Shown: one piece after another, positions 5,610-39,025 of the stretch
Numbering within the stretch: position 1 is the stretch's first letter
Layout of the letters: each line of letters begins with the position of its first letter
DNA from: Escherichia phage Schulenburg
Sequence record: MK931438.1
DNA: 44,748 nucleotides
Reading direction: 5' to 3' (one strand)
Made by a program: the position numbers and the translations under genes
The notes under the pieces: generated by a model
Databases searched by the model: none
Told to the model about the DNA's origin: nothing
Seen by the model: the letters and a program-made list of their open reading frames with translations, nothing else

Positions 5610-5642
5610 AAAGGCCCCATAATGGGGCCTTAGTTTTATTTA
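5610..5642. terminator. bidirectional intrinsic terminator
   Basis: 8-bp stem aggcccca / tggggcct flanked by A-run upstream and TTTTATTT downstream; lies between convergent genes 5149-5607 (+) and 5636-6157 (-). Confidence 0.6.
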
Positions 5643-6157
5643 AATCGCGCAGGCATTAACACCATAAAGGCCGTGTTTGAAAATTGTATTTTGCATCCTC
5701 TGGTTTGGTCCTGGAAATCGAAACGAGCAATTTCATTTTTGTATGCCTTAGAAATCTTGTACGCGTCTGCCAAATAGCGCAGAGTGAACCCTATACTACC
5801 GACAACACCTGGTGTGATGTGCGCCACGCGTCTCCAGTCAGGAAAGTTTCCTTCTACAACATCTACCGGAAGTGTACATATAAGCGCACGATTATCGTCA
5901 TAGAAAGATACACTGCCGTTGTCGTGGTCTACCTCTGCGTAGTTAAATTTAGAAGGCTCTCTCCCTTTAATGTCGACGAGAACCCCTTTCTCAACGTTCG
6001 TCTTCACATTGTCGCAGAACAATCTATGACCGTCCGTAGACACTATCAATCCTTCAGGGTCTATGTAAAAAGCGTTCAAATAGTATCGAACATCATTTTT
6101 AGCCCTGCATATTTTCGCCCCTACATACGCAGGGAAAGTAATTACTGTAGTAACCAT
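5636..6157 (-). CDS. hypothetical protein (opposite-strand moron)
   Basis: 173-aa ORF on minus strand inside the head module; AGGAGG SD; own promoter motif upstream and convergent terminator; locally AT-rich. Confidence 0.6.
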   Translation of the reverse strand: MVTTVITFPAYVGAKICRAKNDVRYYLNAFYIDPEGLIVSTDGHRLFCDNVKTNVEKGVLVDIKGREPSKFNYAEVDHDNGSVSFYDDNRALICTLPVDVVEGNFPDWRRVAHITPGVVGSIGFTLRYLADAYKISKAYKNEIARFDFQDQTRGCKIQFSNTAFMVLMPARFK

Positions 6158-6184
6158 TTTATGCCTCCTGTTTAAGTTAACTGA

Positions 6185-6213
6185 ATAGTACCCTATTATA
6201 TTGGTGCGCGCAA
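6185..6213 (-). promoter_or_regulatory. type-B promoter/operator (TTGCGC-N17-TACTAT over palindrome AATAGGGTACTATT)
   Basis: Minus-strand TTGCGC, 17-nt spacer, TACTAT; inverted repeat AATAG-N4-CTATT overlaps the -10; about 30 nt upstream of moron start 6157. Confidence 0.45.
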
Positions 6214-6279
6214 ACTATTTATTTACGTATTCCAGTTATTCCACTCAATTGTAAACGTTGGAATAAACTATTCGAATAG

Positions 6280-6308
6280 TTGACTTTTCACTGAAAATAT
6301 GATAAGCT
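6280..6308 (+). promoter_or_regulatory. sigma70-like promoter (TTGACT-17-TAAGCT) of conserved RNA element, copy 1
   Basis: TTGACT, 17-nt spacer, TAAGCT; near-identical promoter and downstream sequence recur at about 37877. Confidence 0.5.
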
Positions 6309-6515
6309 CCACCTGAGCTTGTGAAGTATGAACAAGCGACCGCGGCGCGGGCAGGTAACGGAGCGGGACGTAAGTCCTGAGTGTAGTTACGCTGACGCGT
6401 TCGGAAGGGCCATAGTCTATTGCTTGTGTAAAAAGTAACTGGTTTACTGAGATTACGCCGTTTCTATGTTTAAATGATAAGGACTAGCGCCCCGCTTTAA
6501 GGCGGGGCTTTACTT
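6309..6515 (+). ncRNA. candidate promoter-proximal structured RNA / leader element (copy 1)
   Basis: About 40 nt (cctgagcttgtgaagtatgaacaagcgaccgcggcgcg) identical to copy 2, then about 130 nt diverged but alignable; hairpins gcttgt-N9-acaagc and ggac-GTAA-gtcc; ends with stem gccccgc/gcggggc plus TTTACTT just before the Rz SD. Confidence 0.3.
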
Positions 6516-6532
6516 ATCGAGAAAGGGGAAAC

Positions 6533-6919
6533 ATGAATCTTAAAGCAACTGTCGTAGCAGGAGCATGTTTCATCCTCCTGACATACGGCTACGGAATCTA
6601 CCAGTATCGCAGCGGCTGGGACGAAGGCCGGGCGAATCTCGTTTCGCAGCAACAGCAGAAAGCACAGGCTGAGTTAGCGAAGAAAACACAACGGCAGCAG
6701 CAGGATGAATCAAAGGCCGCCGCCGCTGACAACGAAGGCAAGACGAAATCAGAGGTGCTTACCCGTGAAGTCGTTAAGTACATTAAAACGCCTGGCCGCA
6801 GCGTGTGCACTTTCGACGATGCTCGCGTCCTGCTCAAGTCCCACGCCGTTGCCAACGCCAATTCCATCCCCGGATACGACGATGATGCAGCCGCCGTGCA
6901 AACTGGCACCGCCAAGTAG
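6533..6919 (+). CDS. i-spanin (Rz-like)
   Basis: N-terminal TM helix, then Q/A/K/E-rich coiled-coil region; 128 aa; contains an overlapping +1-frame lipoprotein ORF. Confidence 0.6.
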   Translation: MNLKATVVAGACFILLTYGYGIYQYRSGWDEGRANLVSQQQQKAQAELAKKTQRQQQDESKAAAADNEGKTKSEVLTREVVKYIKTPGRSVCTFDDARVLLKSHAVANANSIPGYDDDAAAVQTGTAK

Positions 6920-8864: not shown

Positions 8865-8880
8865 GGTTAAGATATAATCG

Positions 8881-8908
8881 AGAGGGACTTCGGTCCCTCT
8901 TTTCATTT
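8881..8908 (+). terminator. intrinsic terminator after major capsid gene
   Basis: agagggac-ttcg-gtccctct hairpin followed by TTTCATTT. Confidence 0.6.
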
Positions 8909-8923
8909 ACTAAGAGGTGATTT

Positions 8924-9223
8924 ATGGCTAAGACCGGAAAAGGCTTGCCGCGCAGCCTTCAGAATGTCGACTTCGGCGACTTTGATATCCCCGTCACGCC
9001 CGCCACTACCAGCGTAGTTGGTGGCGTTAAAAAGTCAGCCACTGTAGCTGCACCCGCGGTCATTACCGCTGCCGCCGGGGCGCAGTCCGCTGCGGATCCG
9101 ACTAAAGTCGAGTTCGATGCTCTTGTAGCGGAGTACAACAAACTTCGAACCGATGTTACCGCGCTGCGCACTACCGTAGCAAATCTGTTGACTGCGCTTA
9201 AAAACGCAGGAACCGTAAGCTAA
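8924..9223 (+). CDS. hypothetical head-associated protein
   Basis: 99-aa ORF with SD, in head module. Confidence 0.5.
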   Translation: MAKTGKGLPRSLQNVDFGDFDIPVTPATTSVVGGVKKSATVAAPAVITAAAGAQSAADPTKVEFDALVAEYNKLRTDVTALRTTVANLLTALKNAGTVS

Positions 9224-28048: not shown

Positions 28049-28348
28049 CTAACTATAATAGTTTGCTATTATGTCGTCAACCTCTTCTTTTGTTCCTACT
28101 ACAAAAACATTTGCGTCACGTTTACGAAGCCGTTTGTGCTCCCGTAACTGATGTTCCTCCGGTTCCGTGTTTTCATCCTTCTTCACCTCTACAAACCATA
28201 TAACCCCTCCCGGAAGGACAACCAACAGGTCAGGCGCTCCGTTTCTACCCTCATACACTATCTTACGAACGAGGCCGCCAAGGGCCTCGAATTGCTCTTT
28301 TGCGTATTTCTGAATCTTGCCTTCCGGAGTCATGAGCGCAAAACCCAT
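28049..28348 (-). CDS. VRR-NUC domain nuclease
   Basis: PD-(D/E)xK-type motif PDLLVV...WFVEVKKDE; 99 aa. Confidence 0.6.
   Translation of the reverse strand: MGFALMTPEGKIQKYAKEQFEALGGLVRKIVYEGRNGAPDLLVVLPGGVIWFVEVKKDENTEPEEHQLREHKRLRKRDANVFVVGTKEEVDDIIANYYS
28052..28080 (-). promoter_or_regulatory. type-A promoter with operator in spacer (TTGACG-17-TATAGT; ATAATAG-N4-CTATTAT)
   Basis: Minus-strand -35/-10 with 17-nt spacer containing a perfect 7-bp inverted repeat; overlaps the 3' end of the VRR-NUC gene. Confidence 0.55.
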
Positions 28349-28685: not shown

Positions 28686-30857
28686 TTACTTAGCATAGCG
28701 CTTCATCTCCGCACCTTCTGCAACCAAAGGGAATCCCTCCGCCCAGTCAGGCAATTCACACATCAACCTCTCAAGCTCTGCAACATTGTATTCAGGCGAA
28801 TCTGGCGTCTCGCAGATAATCTCATCGTGTACATGAAGCACAATCGGGTAGCCGTTTGCTTCAACTTTAAGTAGCGCGTTAGCCAGCAAATCACGGCACA
28901 ACGCCTGCGTACAGTTTTCCACCAGTTTGCCTGAGTACGTGTACTGGAATCCCCACTGACGCGTTAACTGGTTCTCCCCCTGGTACTTGATGCGCACGTT
29001 AGTAGAAACTTTTCCGTCTTCGTCTGTCTCTTTCGACACGCTTAAACCGACGCCAGGGTAGGACATAACACGTCCCGACGGCAACGTCATGCGCAACCAC
29101 CAACCCGCTACCTTGTTGCCGTTGTTGTCTGTTTCTACGTTGCGGGAAAACTTAACTCCGCGCGGGCCAGCGGAGAACTCTTTCCCCGGATTACGTATAG
29201 CTGCCATAGCTGCGTCTTCAATATCGCGCCAGAATTGTACTATCGCCGGGTTGGCTTCCCGGTACATTCGTTTCAGAGCGTCACATGTACGCCAGACTTT
29301 CTTATCAAGGATATATGATGGTCGGTCATCCTTTTCACCCGGACGCGGAGGACGTTTAGCTTCCTGAATACGTGCCCACTCGTAACCACGTGCCGTAGCG
29401 GCCCATATATGGTCAGGGAAAGTTCCAGCTAAAATGTTAGTCATGTCGTTCAAATCAAGCCCTAAGTTTTTAGCAAACGTGACGAAAGCGCCCACACCCC
29501 CCGCGTAGCCCAGTCCGAGAACCATTGCTTTGGCTATTTGTCTTTGGTCTTTTGTTACGTCGTCATAACTAACATTGAACACGGTTGATGCGAGTTTCTT
29601 GTACACATCAACTCCGTTTACAAATACTTCTATTAAATCGTCTTCACCCGCCAGCCAGGCCAGCCCACGACCTTCAACGTTAGAGTAATCGGCAACAACA
29701 AACTTGTGTCCGGCTTCCGGGATGATGCAGCTACGCACCGTCGATGCCGTCAGCTTGGCGACATCAAAGCGGCGATGTGCACGTCCTTTCAGTAGCGCAG
29801 AAATACCTTTATCCAGTTCATCGTCATGATAGTACCCGCGGGCCAGGTTCTGTGGCTGGAAGCCTTTGCCAGCGAATCGTAGCGTACGCTTAGCCCCGCC
29901 GTACTGGATACAACCACGGCGGCGGTCGTCTGACGAGCGGCCTAGCAACAGCGGGTTATATTTCGTTGACGCAGTTGACGCGGCCCCGAGGCGCATTTCG
30001 ATAATCATGCGTGCATCGTCGGGTAAATCCTCGTCAGCCAGCAGGTCGTTAAGAGTAGACTTCTGTGCGTTATGGATGCGATGCGCAGGGGCCAGTTCAC
30101 GCAGAATCGGCAGGAAGTCTTTACCGGTAAGCGAGCCGCCGTATTTGCGCTGGGCTTCTTCCTGCAACTGCGCCTTGTGCTTCTCTACGGCTTCAATCGC
30201 TGCTTCCGCCAGCGCAACATCAACCTTGAACCCACGGTCATTGATTAACTGGTCCAGTTCCAGTACACGGTCTTCGAACTCAGAGTTACCCCACCGCGGC
30301 AGCTTATGGAAGACTTCACGCATCGCGGTGATGTCGCTCACGGCGTACTTGATGAACAGCGCCCACTCGTCCAGGTGCGTTTCGGCGGTGTAGCGGCGGA
30401 TTTTGTAGTTCTTCGGCGTAGGTTTAGAGAAACGCTGAATCAGCGCCTTGCCGCGTTTATCTTTCGCGTTGTCTGCCGATACACCCAGCACTTCGCACAA
30501 CGCATCAAGTGAACCCGGCAGCGCGTGGCGAAACGCCCAAATCATCGTATCAATGGTGTTGCTTACAGGAATATCAAAACCCCAGCAGTGTTTCATGATG
30601 AGCCTGTCGAACATTGAGCCGTTGTGCCACACCATCTTGATACGGCTGTTCGGCTTAACCAGGCGGCGTAAGGCGCGGTGCAAATCCCCCGGCATGTCGC
30701 TGCCGTCGGTGCAATCCCATACCTGCACAGGCTCGTCATCAAAAGCATAGGTACAGATTAGCACTTCGGTAGTTGGATGTTCGGCGTAAGCGTAAGAACC
30801 GACTTTCTTTAAATCGGCCTCGGAGAATGTTTCAAAGTCCAGGTATAAGTAGCTCAT
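28686..30857 (-). CDS. DNA polymerase, family A, with 3'-5' exonuclease domain
   Basis: Exo I motif YLDFETFS; Pol I motif A VVADYSNVEGR, motif B RQIAKAMVLGLGYAGG, motif C HVHDEIICE; ATG at 30857 (AAGGAAAAAG SD) preferred over TTG 30911. Confidence 0.85.
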   Translation of the reverse strand: MSYLYLDFETFSEADLKKVGSYAYAEHPTTEVLICTYAFDDEPVQVWDCTDGSDMPGDLHRALRRLVKPNSRIKMVWHNGSMFDRLIMKHCWGFDIPVSNTIDTMIWAFRHALPGSLDALCEVLGVSADNAKDKRGKALIQRFSKPTPKNYKIRRYTAETHLDEWALFIKYAVSDITAMREVFHKLPRWGNSEFEDRVLELDQLINDRGFKVDVALAEAAIEAVEKHKAQLQEEAQRKYGGSLTGKDFLPILRELAPAHRIHNAQKSTLNDLLADEDLPDDARMIIEMRLGAASTASTKYNPLLLGRSSDDRRRGCIQYGGAKRTLRFAGKGFQPQNLARGYYHDDELDKGISALLKGRAHRRFDVAKLTASTVRSCIIPEAGHKFVVADYSNVEGRGLAWLAGEDDLIEVFVNGVDVYKKLASTVFNVSYDDVTKDQRQIAKAMVLGLGYAGGVGAFVTFAKNLGLDLNDMTNILAGTFPDHIWAATARGYEWARIQEAKRPPRPGEKDDRPSYILDKKVWRTCDALKRMYREANPAIVQFWRDIEDAAMAAIRNPGKEFSAGPRGVKFSRNVETDNNGNKVAGWWLRMTLPSGRVMSYPGVGLSVSKETDEDGKVSTNVRIKYQGENQLTRQWGFQYTYSGKLVENCTQALCRDLLANALLKVEANGYPIVLHVHDEIICETPDSPEYNVAELERLMCELPDWAEGFPLVAEGAEMKRYAK

Positions 30858-31753: not shown

Positions 31754-31782
31754 ACTATAATAGCTAACTATTCAGGTGTCAA
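31754..31782 (-). promoter_or_regulatory. type-A promoter with operator in spacer (TTGACA-17-TATAGT; AATAG-N4-CTATT)
   Basis: Perfect -35, 17-nt spacer containing inverted repeat gAATAGTTAGCTATTat; immediately after the DUF2800-like stop. Confidence 0.55.
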
Positions 31783-34290: not shown

Positions 34291-34319
34291 ACTATAATAG
34301 CGAACTATTCACTTGTCAA
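34291..34319 (-). promoter_or_regulatory. type-A promoter with operator in spacer (TTGACA-17-TATAGT; AATAG-N4-CTATT)
   Basis: Minus-strand promoter divergent from the HTH regulator gene; inverted repeat gAATAGTTCGCTATTat in spacer. Confidence 0.55.
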
Positions 34320-37384: not shown

Positions 37385-37591
37385 ATCGCCTGCAAACCAC
37401 GCGTGCGCAGAATCATAGAAACGACATTTACTTAATACCTCGATTGGCATCTTAATAATGCGCGTCGGTTCCGACAAATGATTAGGCTTACATATTTCTA
37501 CATAGAATCCGCTGTCAGTAATTTCTGACGCAAACTTAAACCGGTATTTAACTTTACCGTCTTCAAAGTAACAACCCATACGCCCAATCAT
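37379..37591 (-). CDS. hypothetical protein (70 aa)
   Basis: ORF coupled to upstream AlpA-like gene. Confidence 0.5.
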   Translation of the reverse strand: MIGRMGCYFEDGKVKYRFKFASEITDSGFYVEICKPNHLSEPTRIIKMPIEVLSKCRFYDSAHAWFAGDK

Positions 37592-37770
37592 TTCACGTTC
37601 TCCTTAATCCATGCTTCAACTTTATTACGGTCAAATGTACCCGGTAAACGGCGGCCCATTACTTTAATACAGCAGTCAGGGAATTTACCACTGCGCAGCC
37701 AGTTATTAATTGTCTGACGTGTCACACCGATACGTTCTGCTACTTCATTCTGGGTCATGTAATGTTGCAT
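37588..37770 (-). CDS. AlpA/Xis-like DNA-binding protein
   Basis: MTQNEVAERIGVTRQTINNWLRSGKFP HTH; ATG at 37770 with AGGAGA SD. Confidence 0.5.
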   Translation of the reverse strand: MQHYMTQNEVAERIGVTRQTINNWLRSGKFPDCCIKVMGRRLPGTFDRNKVEAWIKENVK

Positions 37771-37801
37771 TTTTATATCTCCTGTTTGTTTGGTGAAGCT
37801 G

Positions 37802-37830
37802 AGTATAGGATAGCGGGAATGTAAAAGCAA
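37802..37830 (-). promoter_or_regulatory. sigma70-like promoter (TTGCTT-17-TATACT) for AlpA-like operon
   Basis: Minus-strand -35/-10 with 17-nt spacer about 30 nt upstream of ATG 37770. Confidence 0.45.
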
Positions 37831-37876
37831 CCAAAACGCCACACAAAGTTACTAAGATACAAAAGATGCTACTGGT

Positions 37877-37905
37877 GTTGACTTTTACTAAGAAATATGG
37901 TAAGC
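37877..37905 (+). promoter_or_regulatory. sigma70-like promoter (TTGACT-17-TAAGCT) of conserved RNA element, copy 2
   Basis: Same hexamers and spacing as the copy at about 6280. Confidence 0.5.
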
Positions 37906-38105
37906 TCAGCCTGAGCTTGTGAAGTATGAACAAGCGACCGCGGCGCGCGGCAGGCGAAACGAGCACGTGTAGCGTGTGGAGTGAGGCTCGCTAGCGCGTT
38001 TGGGAGGCCCAAAGTCTATTGTAATTCCCGCCTAAATATCTAAGTTACTGATTTGCCGTAGGTTATATCCGCAAGCTCACTCACTCTTGGTGCCTTCGGC
38101 ACCAC
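37906..38105 (+). ncRNA. candidate promoter-proximal structured RNA / leader element (copy 2)
   Basis: Shares the about 40-nt core and a further diverged about 130 nt with copy 1; hairpin gcttgt-N9-acaagc; ends near the ggtgcc-ttcg-ggcacc hairpin. Confidence 0.3.
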
Positions 38106-38174
38106 GTTCGTTTCGCTCGCTACACCATTAAACAAAAGAATCACAACGGCAACGTAACCATTTTCAATGAATCT

Positions 38175-38203
38175 CTTGCACACCCCAACATAATAGGATA
38201 CTA
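38175..38203 (+). promoter_or_regulatory. type-B promoter/operator (TTGCAC-N17-TACTAT over palindrome AATAGGATACTATT)
   Basis: About 35 nt upstream of first early gene. Confidence 0.45.
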
Positions 38204-38238
38204 TTCACTTATCGGAACGAGACAGAGGAGTGAGGGTT

Positions 38239-38421
38239 ATGTTTAAGAAGGGTCAGTTGGTTAAAGTAAAAGGGACCAGGGCTTTTTGCTGCGTAGAGTG
38301 GTGTATTGAAATAGATGGGCTTGTTAAGGTTAAAAATGTATTCATAGGCCACTACAGTATATTGCACACGAAAGACATAGAACTCATCGGCAACAATTTT
38401 AAATTCAAAGGGGCGAAGTGA
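38239..38421 (+). CDS. hypothetical early protein (60 aa)
   Basis: ATG with GAGGAG SD; first gene of rightward early cluster. Confidence 0.5.
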   Translation: MFKKGQLVKVKGTRAFCCVEWCIEIDGLVKVKNVFIGHYSILHTKDIELIGNNFKFKGAK

Positions 38422-38984: not shown

Positions 38985-39025
38985 TACGCTGCTGTGTAGC
39001 AGCGTATCATTTTTCTCATTTTTTG
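38985..39025 (+). terminator. intrinsic terminator
   Basis: 9-bp stem tacgctgct / agcagcgta with GTGT loop followed by TCATTTTTCTCATTTTTT. Confidence 0.6.

Follow-up and report, generated by a model that had tools for sequence, protein, structure and literature searches.

What is the conserved sequence that follows two separate promoters in the genome of Escherichia phage Schulenburg, and what might it do at the head of two long operons? The stretch of DNA analyzed here (record MK931438.1; 44,748 nucleotides, hereafter the window) is a near-complete Kagunavirus (Guernseyvirinae) genome, that of a virulent siphophage of E. coli/Raoultella. Around the first locus, it is 97 to 98% identical to Escherichia phage Snoke, while the second locus is identical in Raoultella phage RP180. 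Such phages carry no RNA polymerase gene of their own and use the host enzyme. An earlier note on this DNA had proposed a paralogous, promoter-proximal structured RNA, either a cis-acting antitermination leader of the kind known from phage HK022 put or, alternatively, a trans-acting small RNA. The first part of that proposal stood: a structured leader RNA family, with two paralogs in the window genome, is real and strongly supported.

Two promoters at two operon heads

Both copies of the element are on the + strand and lie in divergent intergenic regions, spanning 6158 to 6532 for copy 1 and about 37843 to 38229 for copy 2. Downstream of the copy 1 leader, the Rz gene starts at 6533, and the operon proceeds in the order Rz/Rz1 spanin, scaffold, capsid, connector, and tail tube. 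The copy 2 operon opens with small ORFs, the first starting near 38230 to 38240, and continues to holins, endolysin, and nin-like genes, towards the terminase genes at the opposite end of the map. Two HTH proteins are encoded nearby, as are many small ORFs without an assigned function. The tail genes from 15427 form another rightward block, the third; the intergenic space there is only 40 nt, and a covariance model search found no copy of the element.

The copy 1 promoter (6280 to 6308, + strand) comprises a -35 hexamer, TTGACT, at 6280 to 6285, a 17-bp spacer, and an extended -10, TGaTAAGCT, at 6300 to 6308 (TG at 6300 to 6301, TAAGCT at 6303 to 6308). Its counterpart at copy 2 (37878 to 37906, + strand) consists of TTGACT, a 17-bp spacer, and TGgTAAGCT. 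In agreement with the TTGACT-17-TAAGCT promoter proposed earlier, the 29-nt pattern TTGACTTTT-N6-AAATATGNTAAGCT occurred exactly twice in the window, with 0 matches expected and none found in 100 shuffles. The site homologous to the copy 1 promoter in phage PVP-SE2 also carries a promoter annotation. Judged from promoter spacing, the predicted transcript start is G6315 or A6316 for copy 1 and a position near 37913 for copy 2. At both copies, the sequence AAGCTC-N5-GAGCTT overlaps the -10 and the start, and the spacing of this -10/P1 repeat varies by leader class (5, 12, and ~10 nt). The earlier note had taken aagctc..gagctt (6304 to 6320) for an RNA hairpin competing with its downstream neighbor. 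However, it contains the -10 hexamer, which is untranscribed with a start near 6315, and the notion of two mutually exclusive RNA hairpins is unsupported for that reason.

Fold and covariation of the leader RNA

The two loci match almost perfectly between the -10 and about +35; farther 3' they have diverged yet remain alignable, as the earlier note had described. The element totals ~110 nt: a hairpin (P1) is joined by a GA linker to a second hairpin (P2), which is long and irregular, and a conserved tail with CUAUUG at its 3' end follows. In copy 1, P1 (6317 to 6337, + strand) is GCUUGU-GAAGUAUGA-ACAAGC, with an N9 loop, and starts 2 to 3 nt past the predicted 5' end; this is the gcttgt-N9-acaagc hairpin recognized previously, and it folds in RNAfold. 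The GA linker (6338-6339, + strand) separates P1 from P2 (6340 to 6404, + strand), a hairpin of 65 nt whose fold is the same in 37 variants. From base to apex, copy 1 P2 contains the helices CCG:CGG, GGCGCG:CGCGUU, CAG:CUG, and GUAAC:GUUAC, the internal loop GGAG/AGUGUA, and the apical hairpin CGGGAC-GUAA-GUCCUG at 6364 to 6379. Thus the proposed ggac-GTAA-gtcc hairpin exists, although its GNRA loop is not kept among homologs, where AUUA, UUUA, GUUA, GUCA, UGUAG, or CACA stands in place of GUAA. The block gtgtag, also listed earlier as shared, is conserved, not as part of a helix but as the 3' internal-loop motif GAGUG(U)AG. Downstream of P2, the copy 1 tail (6405 to 6422, + strand), AAGGGCCAUAGUCUAUUG, is conserved and single-stranded, and in alignments its motif GGGCC..CUAUUG was common to all leader classes, including the Jersey type and type B described below. 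The rest of the copy 1 leader (6423 to 6532, + strand) holds a terminator-like hairpin, UUUACUU, and the Shine-Dalgarno sequence of Rz.

Copy 2 follows the same order. Its P1 (37915 to 37935, + strand) is identical in sequence to that of copy 1, and the base helices of its P2 (37938 to 38003, + strand) are as in copy 1 (CCG:UGG and GGCGCGC:GCGCGUU). The inner helix, CGAGC:GCUCG, and the apical hairpin, ACG-UGUAG-CGU, differ from their copy 1 counterparts. The tail (38004 to 38021, + strand) reads GAGGCCCAAAGUCUAUUG, and the rest of the leader (38022 to 38239, + strand) contains a GC-rich hairpin, after which the first small ORF begins. The untranslated leaders are 220 to 330 nt long. A small ORF or leader peptide was considered and rejected: close variants differ by indels of 1 to 2 nt, which, like the pairing pattern, speaks against coding. 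Several small CDSs to which the label "hypothetical protein" has been given in annotations of this region are probably not genes. For the P1 loop, a sigma-dependent pause element (AAGTAT, of the NANNAT type) was likewise discarded, as the copy 2 variants do not keep it.

Homologs gathered from GenBank phages and IMG/VR yielded 37 distinct sequences. When folded singly, all 37 gave the P1-linker-P2 shape despite differing inner-helix sequences, and Jersey-type variants did likewise. With the plain MAFFT alignment as input, RNAalifold recovered only P1 and fragments, the variable apex being misaligned; it was replaced by single-sequence folds, a structure specified by hand, and covariance-model alignment. 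On the MAFFT alignment, which was not fitted to structure, 92.8% of cells were paired under the hand-specified structure, compared with 31 to 39% when the 3' partners were slid by 1 to 3 columns. Compensatory types in this alignment included C-G/U-A/A-U at one base-helix pair and U-A/A-U/G-C at one middle-helix pair, and a U-A pair of P1 becomes U-G in variants. A covariance model (R1), built from the MAFFT alignment with the hand-specified structure, found exactly two matches in the window, at 6314 to 6431 (144.5 bits) and 37912 to 38030 (88 bits), the next scoring 13 bits. In the model-fitted alignment of 46 distinct sequences (73 matches), which leans to the model by construction while agreeing in result with the unfitted alignment and the single-sequence folds, 95.6% of cells were paired, compared with 29 to 41% in slid controls. 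Changes on both sides affected 15 of the 29 pairs in this alignment, against 2 to 5 such pairs in the slid controls. Alignment of the two copies with their relatives, which the earlier note had suggested as a check, revealed abundant compensatory changes, and each variant folds to the same shape. Conservation is not confined to the promoter hexamers: the leader is conserved and its stems covary.

The fold is also specific to one strand. G-U pairs at two positions were retained in 40 of 44 sequences, and the fold energy of the + strand was -38 kcal/mol, compared with -25 to -27 kcal/mol for the - strand, an asymmetry of 11 to 13 kcal/mol. Given the retained G-U pairs and this asymmetry, the fold belongs to + strand RNA and not to DNA.

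Distribution across Guernseyvirinae

Copy 1 is carried by about 450 Guernseyvirinae genomes. Its kagunavirus form was found at 93 to 99% identity in 180 phage records and its jerseyvirus form in 268 records, and together these forms cover essentially all of the ~460 genomes whose capsid protein is at least 88% identical to that of the window. The paralogous copy 2 was detected by BLAST in only about 42 kagunaviruses. In Salmonella jerseyvirus Ent2, the covariance model detected a diverged copy in the corresponding position ahead of Rz, with a score of 38.8 bits (E about 3e-8). In this Ent2/Jersey type, P1 is wholly replaced by ACGCU:AGCGU, so that 3 pairs are changed on both sides, and the inner P2 helices differ, while the base helix and tail (CGGAAGGGCC..CUAUAUUG) match the window copies. 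P1 starts at +1 to +3 in both kagunaviruses and jerseyviruses. Jersey itself (KF148055) has a full P2. In one jerseyvirus genome on deposit, Jersey UPWr_S1, a deletion between two ACCGCG repeats has removed P2; since this phage is still viable, P2 is not essential for propagation.

We refer to the class found twice in the window as type A and to the leader at the second promoter of most relatives as type B. The latter occupies the copy 2 locus in 361 other genomes, the majority of Guernseyvirinae, and comprises a TTGACA-17-TAAGTT promoter and one long hairpin of about 110 nt with a few compensatory changes. Further downstream, the type B tail, GGGCGAGCUAUAUUC, resembles that of type A. Among 15 distinct kagunavirus loci, positions 6229 to 6547 were 96 to 100% conserved; the Rz coding sequence was less conserved and the upstream region much less so. 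In these loci, conservation spans the whole copy 1 leader and not the folded part alone.

Among the genomes searched, the family is confined to virulent Guernseyvirinae phages. The element was absent from 5,426 complete E. coli genomes (BLAST) and from PMBT28, a more distant capsid relative. A pattern scan of one genome from each of 185,579 species returned 90 chance matches in GC-rich genomes and otherwise one phage contig; this single bacterial match, in a Bacillota MAG, is probably a mis-binned phage contig. A looser pattern, GGCAGG..AG...CGCT..GGRAGG, matched about 80 loci in IMG/VR and was abandoned, as these were chance matches save for kagunavirus contigs. With Rfam 15, nothing in the window matched at the gathering threshold, and under permissive settings the best scores were 15 to 18 bits against thresholds of 42 to 55 bits. 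Literature searches, one of them framed too broadly to be of use, yielded no description of the element, and published kagunavirus RNA-seq gives gene-level timing only (PMC12645636). The leader RNA family is new.

Candidate functions and known systems

Each operon combines the element with terminator-like sites. In the copy 1 leader, the hairpin at 6489 to 6508 (+ strand), GCCCCGC-UUUAA-GGCGGGGC, has 8 pairs followed by UUUACUU and is GC-rich and terminator-like. It is the top-scoring terminator-like site in the first 20 kb and lies just before the Rz ribosome-binding site, matching the hairpin and T-tract (TTTACTT) that the earlier note had placed directly before the Rz Shine-Dalgarno sequence. 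Jerseyviruses retain this leader hairpin with different stem bases. The copy 2 leader hairpin (38088 to 38104, + strand), GGUGCC-UUCG-GGCACC, has a weak U tract, as do the corresponding hairpins of the jerseyviruses; with such tracts, efficient termination may be doubtful. Within the operons, an intrinsic terminator follows the major capsid gene at 8880 to 8901 (+ strand), and a strong one is found at 38985 to 39006 (+ strand; TACGCUGCUGUGUAGCAGCGUA then UCAUUUUU). The homologous site of each is annotated as a terminator in Snoke. The first takes up the 59 nt that separate the capsid gene from the gene that follows, which starts at 8924, so close to the terminator that there is no room for a promoter before it. 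We also scrutinized the leaders and surrounding ORFs for known antitermination apparatus. No boxA (CGCUCUUA-like) was found within 1 mismatch in either leader, and no ops element (GGCGGUAGnnUG) within 2 mismatches in the leaders. Similarly, a scan of 26 ORFs near the two copies and downstream of them revealed no N, Q, or NusG-like Pfam domain, the Pfam families present being HTH_17, NinH, and DUF only.

The best reading of the element, which we hold tentatively and at well short of an even chance, is a cis-acting antiterminator RNA that would control elongation in a manner analogous, not homologous, to put. Host sigma-70 polymerase, at the extended -10 promoter, would make a transcript whose first ~110 nt are the element, and the nascent RNA would fold cotranscriptionally into the 5'-terminal P1, the long P2, and the conserved single-stranded tail. 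We infer the transcription start, a contact with polymerase, and antitermination: the folded leader would stay on the polymerase that made it, which would then resist pausing and intrinsic or Rho-dependent termination. Read-through of the leaders with their hairpins, and of the terminators located at 8880 and 38985, would be restricted to polymerases from the two promoters and would allow expression of the long rightward operons (Rz-head-tail in one case, small ORFs-lysis-packaging direction in the other). Extreme conservation would be expected if the binding partner of the RNA is a host machine that does not vary.

Several observations suggest such a function, namely a real, strand-specific structure, its promoter-proximal position, and two paralogs heading long operons. 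Terminator-like sites in the copy 1 leader and inside both operons, the lack of any alternative apparatus among the sites and domains searched, and the extreme conservation of a family limited to virulent Guernseyvirinae point the same way. Against it stand the lack of homology to HK022 put, the 65-nt length of P2, and the viability of UPWr_S1 without P2, together with the weak U tracts, the missing copy at the 15427 block, and the presence of type B at most copy 2 loci. Whole-leader conservation fits other leader functions equally well. It is possible, if doubtful, that Guernseyvirinae use RNA-only processive antitermination that arose independently of put and comprises at least two structural classes, type A and type B.

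Other functions for a conserved leader have to be weighed against a put-like antiterminator. An RNA processing or stability element is unlikely; here P2 (about 23 bp) would serve as an RNase III site and P1 as a shield against 5'-end decay, and cleavage would free a structured fragment from the 5' end and determine how stable the downstream mRNA is or how well it is translated. P2 is indeed long and irregular, is double-stranded over about two helical turns, and keeps its internal loops conserved, and P1, at +1 to +3 in both genera, sits where 5' stabilizer hairpins must sit, a positional requirement established for the ompA 5' UTR. Consistent with such a role, the type B leader at the other locus is likewise one long hairpin, and a viable P2-deleted phage fits a modulatory element. 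However, RNase III needs double-stranded RNA and not a specific sequence, while the linker, base helices, and tail are nearly invariant over hundreds of genomes; moreover, each genome has two sites, both at operon heads, whereas T7 sites lie between many genes. Were the element the trans-acting small RNA of the earlier note, transcription would stop at the leader hairpin (giving about 195 nt in the case of copy 1), and the product would target host or phage, e.g., as a decoy for a host protein or defense system, with downstream genes expressed only by leaky read-through. That promoter, structured RNA, and terminator-like hairpin form a self-contained, phage-specific unit conserved at 96 to 100% throughout is in keeping with this account, which we nevertheless regard as improbable: no separate promoter stands between the leader and the first gene of each operon, which comes immediately after it; the two copies are unlike in their 3' parts; the U tracts are ill suited to efficient termination or to Hfq binding; and BLAST, at its sensitivity, revealed no complementary target in E. 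coli genomes.

A nut-like site, at which an unrecognized phage protein, with or without host Nus factors, would bind the leader and modify polymerase or control translation, shares the positional arguments of the put-like model and could draw on the many small ORFs of unassigned function and the two nearby HTH proteins. We consider it decidedly improbable given that neither a boxA nor a boxB-like conserved loop is seen in the leaders, the P2 apical loop varying freely, that no N or Q family domain was found in the 26 ORFs, and that known protein-recruiting nut sites are much smaller and less conserved than this RNA. The conserved unpaired nucleotides in the internal loops, set among stems that vary, and the 5' UTR location upstream of a terminator-like hairpin would also suit a riboswitch or attenuator in which P1, P2, and the tail form a metabolite or ion aptamer controlling the 6489 to 6508 hairpin. 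Such an aptamer is very improbable, as no Rfam family matched even at permissive thresholds, the hairpin lies about 85 nt past P2 with no conserved alternative pairing seen by eye, the expression platforms of the two copies differ, and the U tracts are weak in relatives. Finally, the conserved sequence might act as DNA only, as repressor operators or a replication origin or primer site, its RNA fold being incidental. While the AAGCTC-N5-GAGCTT sequence over the -10 and start at both copies and the position of the copies in divergent control regions adjoining HTH genes agree with operators, a DNA-level role alone is hardly credible beside the G-U pairs kept at two positions in 40 of 44 sequences, the strand asymmetry of 11 to 13 kcal/mol in fold energy, the compensatory changes along a 65-nt bulged helix, and a -10/P1 repeat spacing that differs between classes (5, 12, and about 10 nt).

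To our knowledge, RNA-only control of RNA polymerase in phages is essentially limited to HK022 put and a few lambdoid relatives. The put RNAs are about 70 nt long with two stem-loops and follow PL and PR, putL beginning at +3; they need no phage protein, work through binding to the beta' zinc-binding domain of RNA polymerase, suppress pausing and termination over >10 kb, and have a triple helix in stem I (Hwang et al. 2022, PMC9378689). In the HK022 genome, putL is at about 28310 on the - strand and putR at about 29440 to 29530. Like put, the Guernseyvirinae element occurs as two paralogous copies, each after a sigma-70 promoter heading a long terminator-containing operon, and has two adjacent stem-loops with bulges, the first at about +3 as in putL, with no phage N-like factor evident. 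Unlike put, it is about 90 to 110 nt long with hairpins of 21 and 65 nt, the second much longer than put stem II, and has a conserved 3' tail and no counterpart of the stem I triple helix; furthermore, HK022 is a lambdoid temperate phage, whereas the window phage is a virulent siphophage. With filters off, the covariance model R1 gave no match at HK022 putL or putR, and Smith-Waterman comparisons of the element with the HK022 put RNAs against shuffles gave p = 0.09 to 0.93, none of them significant. The 5' half of put stem II (GAGCGCGGCGGGUUCAGGAUGAACGG) shows a string likeness to the stretch made up of the linker and the 5' half of P2 (GACCGCGGCGCGGGCAGGUAACGG); it reached p = 0.09, was absent for copy 2, the Jersey type, and putR, and was rejected as evidence of homology. 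The put-like reading of the earlier note fits strikingly well in arrangement (two copies, promoters, stem-loops, terminators, and no N, Q, boxA, or ops) but has no support from sequence homology. By sequence and covariance-model comparison, homology to HK022 put is not detectable and the element cannot be assigned to the put family, though by analogy the leader may work like put.

The element also shares features with other known systems. As with lambda nutL and nutR, paired sites lie in two operon leaders upstream of terminators; unlike lambda nut, there is no boxA, no conserved boxB-type loop, and no N homolog found, and the RNA is much larger. The lambda PR'-qut-6S RNA-tR' region resembles copy 1 in having a constitutive-looking promoter, a ~200-nt leader, and a terminator-like hairpin ahead of lysis (Rz) and structural genes, and in both a -10-like sequence recurs just downstream of the -10. 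In contrast to the lambda Q system, no Q family protein was found, and a conserved folded RNA is present here, whereas qut acts as DNA. T7 RNase III sites (R0.3, R1.1) and the lambda N-leader hairpin are likewise long, irregular, looped hairpins after early promoters; unlike the T7 sites, those described here number only two, and their sequence is conserved beyond the requirement for double-stranded RNA. EAR of the Bacillus subtilis eps operon and other processive-antitermination leader RNAs are, like this element, structured RNAs of at least 100 nt in long operons, and EAR-type leaders have been proposed to render polymerase terminator-resistant. The organism and fold differ, and no Rfam match to such families was obtained in the window.

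Beside HK022 put, the Guernseyvirinae leader is a second, unrelated, and very well conserved promoter-proximal phage RNA, and it would make the generality of RNA-only polymerase control directly testable on E. coli polymerase. Its host phages include Salmonella jerseyviruses and K1-specific kagunaviruses, widely used in therapy and biocontrol work. Even if the element functions in processing or stability, it marks the start of the main structural-gene transcript and offers a compact, portable leader for phage engineering. If RNA-only antitermination does operate here, cis-acting RNAs that modify polymerase would be a recurrent phage strategy extending beyond the few lambdoid phages that carry put.

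Type B leaders at the second rightward promoter

In most Guernseyvirinae (361 records), the leader at this promoter is not type A but a different form, type B. The example in Salmonella phage Ent2 spans positions 37546-37760 and corresponds to about 37870-38100 of the window, the homologous copy 2 locus. The type B promoter, TTGACA-17-TAAGTT, precedes an irregular hairpin about 110 nt long, in which comparison of Salmonella with E. coli phages reveals some compensatory changes, and then a tail, GGGCGAGCUAUAUUC, similar to that of type A. Types A and B may be two classes of one kind of element. An element of the copy 2 type, scoring 95.9 bits, lies at positions 2135-2254 of JAEWLW010000073.1, a 6.2-kb contig labelled as a Bacillota metagenome-assembled genome and probably a wrongly binned kagunavirus contig.

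Promoter sequences and their recurrence in the first hairpin

Three near-consensus sigma-70 promoters on the minus strand (34291-34319, 31754-31782, and 28052-28080; TTGACA or TTGACG, 17-bp spacer, TATAGT) point leftward into the replication genes. Unlike these, the rightward leader-RNA promoters have a non-consensus -10, TAAGCT, and depend on an extended TG. The first hairpin of each of the three leader classes repeats the sequence of the -10 hexamer (window 6303-6320 and 37901-37918; Ent2 5777-5806 and 37566-37605), for example as TAAGCT..TGAGCT in the window copies, where AAGCTC and GAGCTT are complementary, and elsewhere as TACGCT-acc-TACGCT..AGCGTA or TAAGTT..AACTT-c-AAGTT..TAAGTT. Spacing between the -10 and its repeat differs among the classes. 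Possible explanations for the recurrence are a sigma-dependent pause element, an operator, or a relic of evolution.

Within the copy 2 operon, a strong internal terminator (window 38985-39006; TACGCTGCTGTGTAGCAGCGTA) has stem ends, TACGCT..AGCGTA, identical to those of the jerseyvirus leader -10 and P1, and a near-identical hairpin is present in Ent2 at 38283-38306.

Gene context, overlapping annotations, and a natural P2 deletion

Upstream of copy 1, a minus-strand gene encodes a sliding-clamp-like protein of 173 aa (window 5636-6157). Jerseyviruses lack this gene, and their leader directly follows a Hoc-like gene and terminator; in certain relatives (fEg-Eco19, vB_VIPECOMC04), an HNH endonuclease gene has been inserted in this region. 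In several GenBank records, small 'hypothetical protein' CDSs are drawn across the leader RNA, namely Snoke_007 (Snoke 6449-6559), Snoke_056 (Snoke 37709-37816, minus strand), Jersey_08 (303-494 of the original phage Jersey record), and PVP-SE2 ORF_53 (PVP-SE2 376-495). Given the pairing pattern and frame-breaking indels, these CDSs are probably not genes.

The original Jersey record contains the full element, P2 included. At 38254-38321 of Jerseyvirus jersey strain UPWr_S1, the entire P2 interior has been lost between two ACCGCG direct repeats. UPWr_S1 is, in effect, a ready-made P2 deletion mutant.
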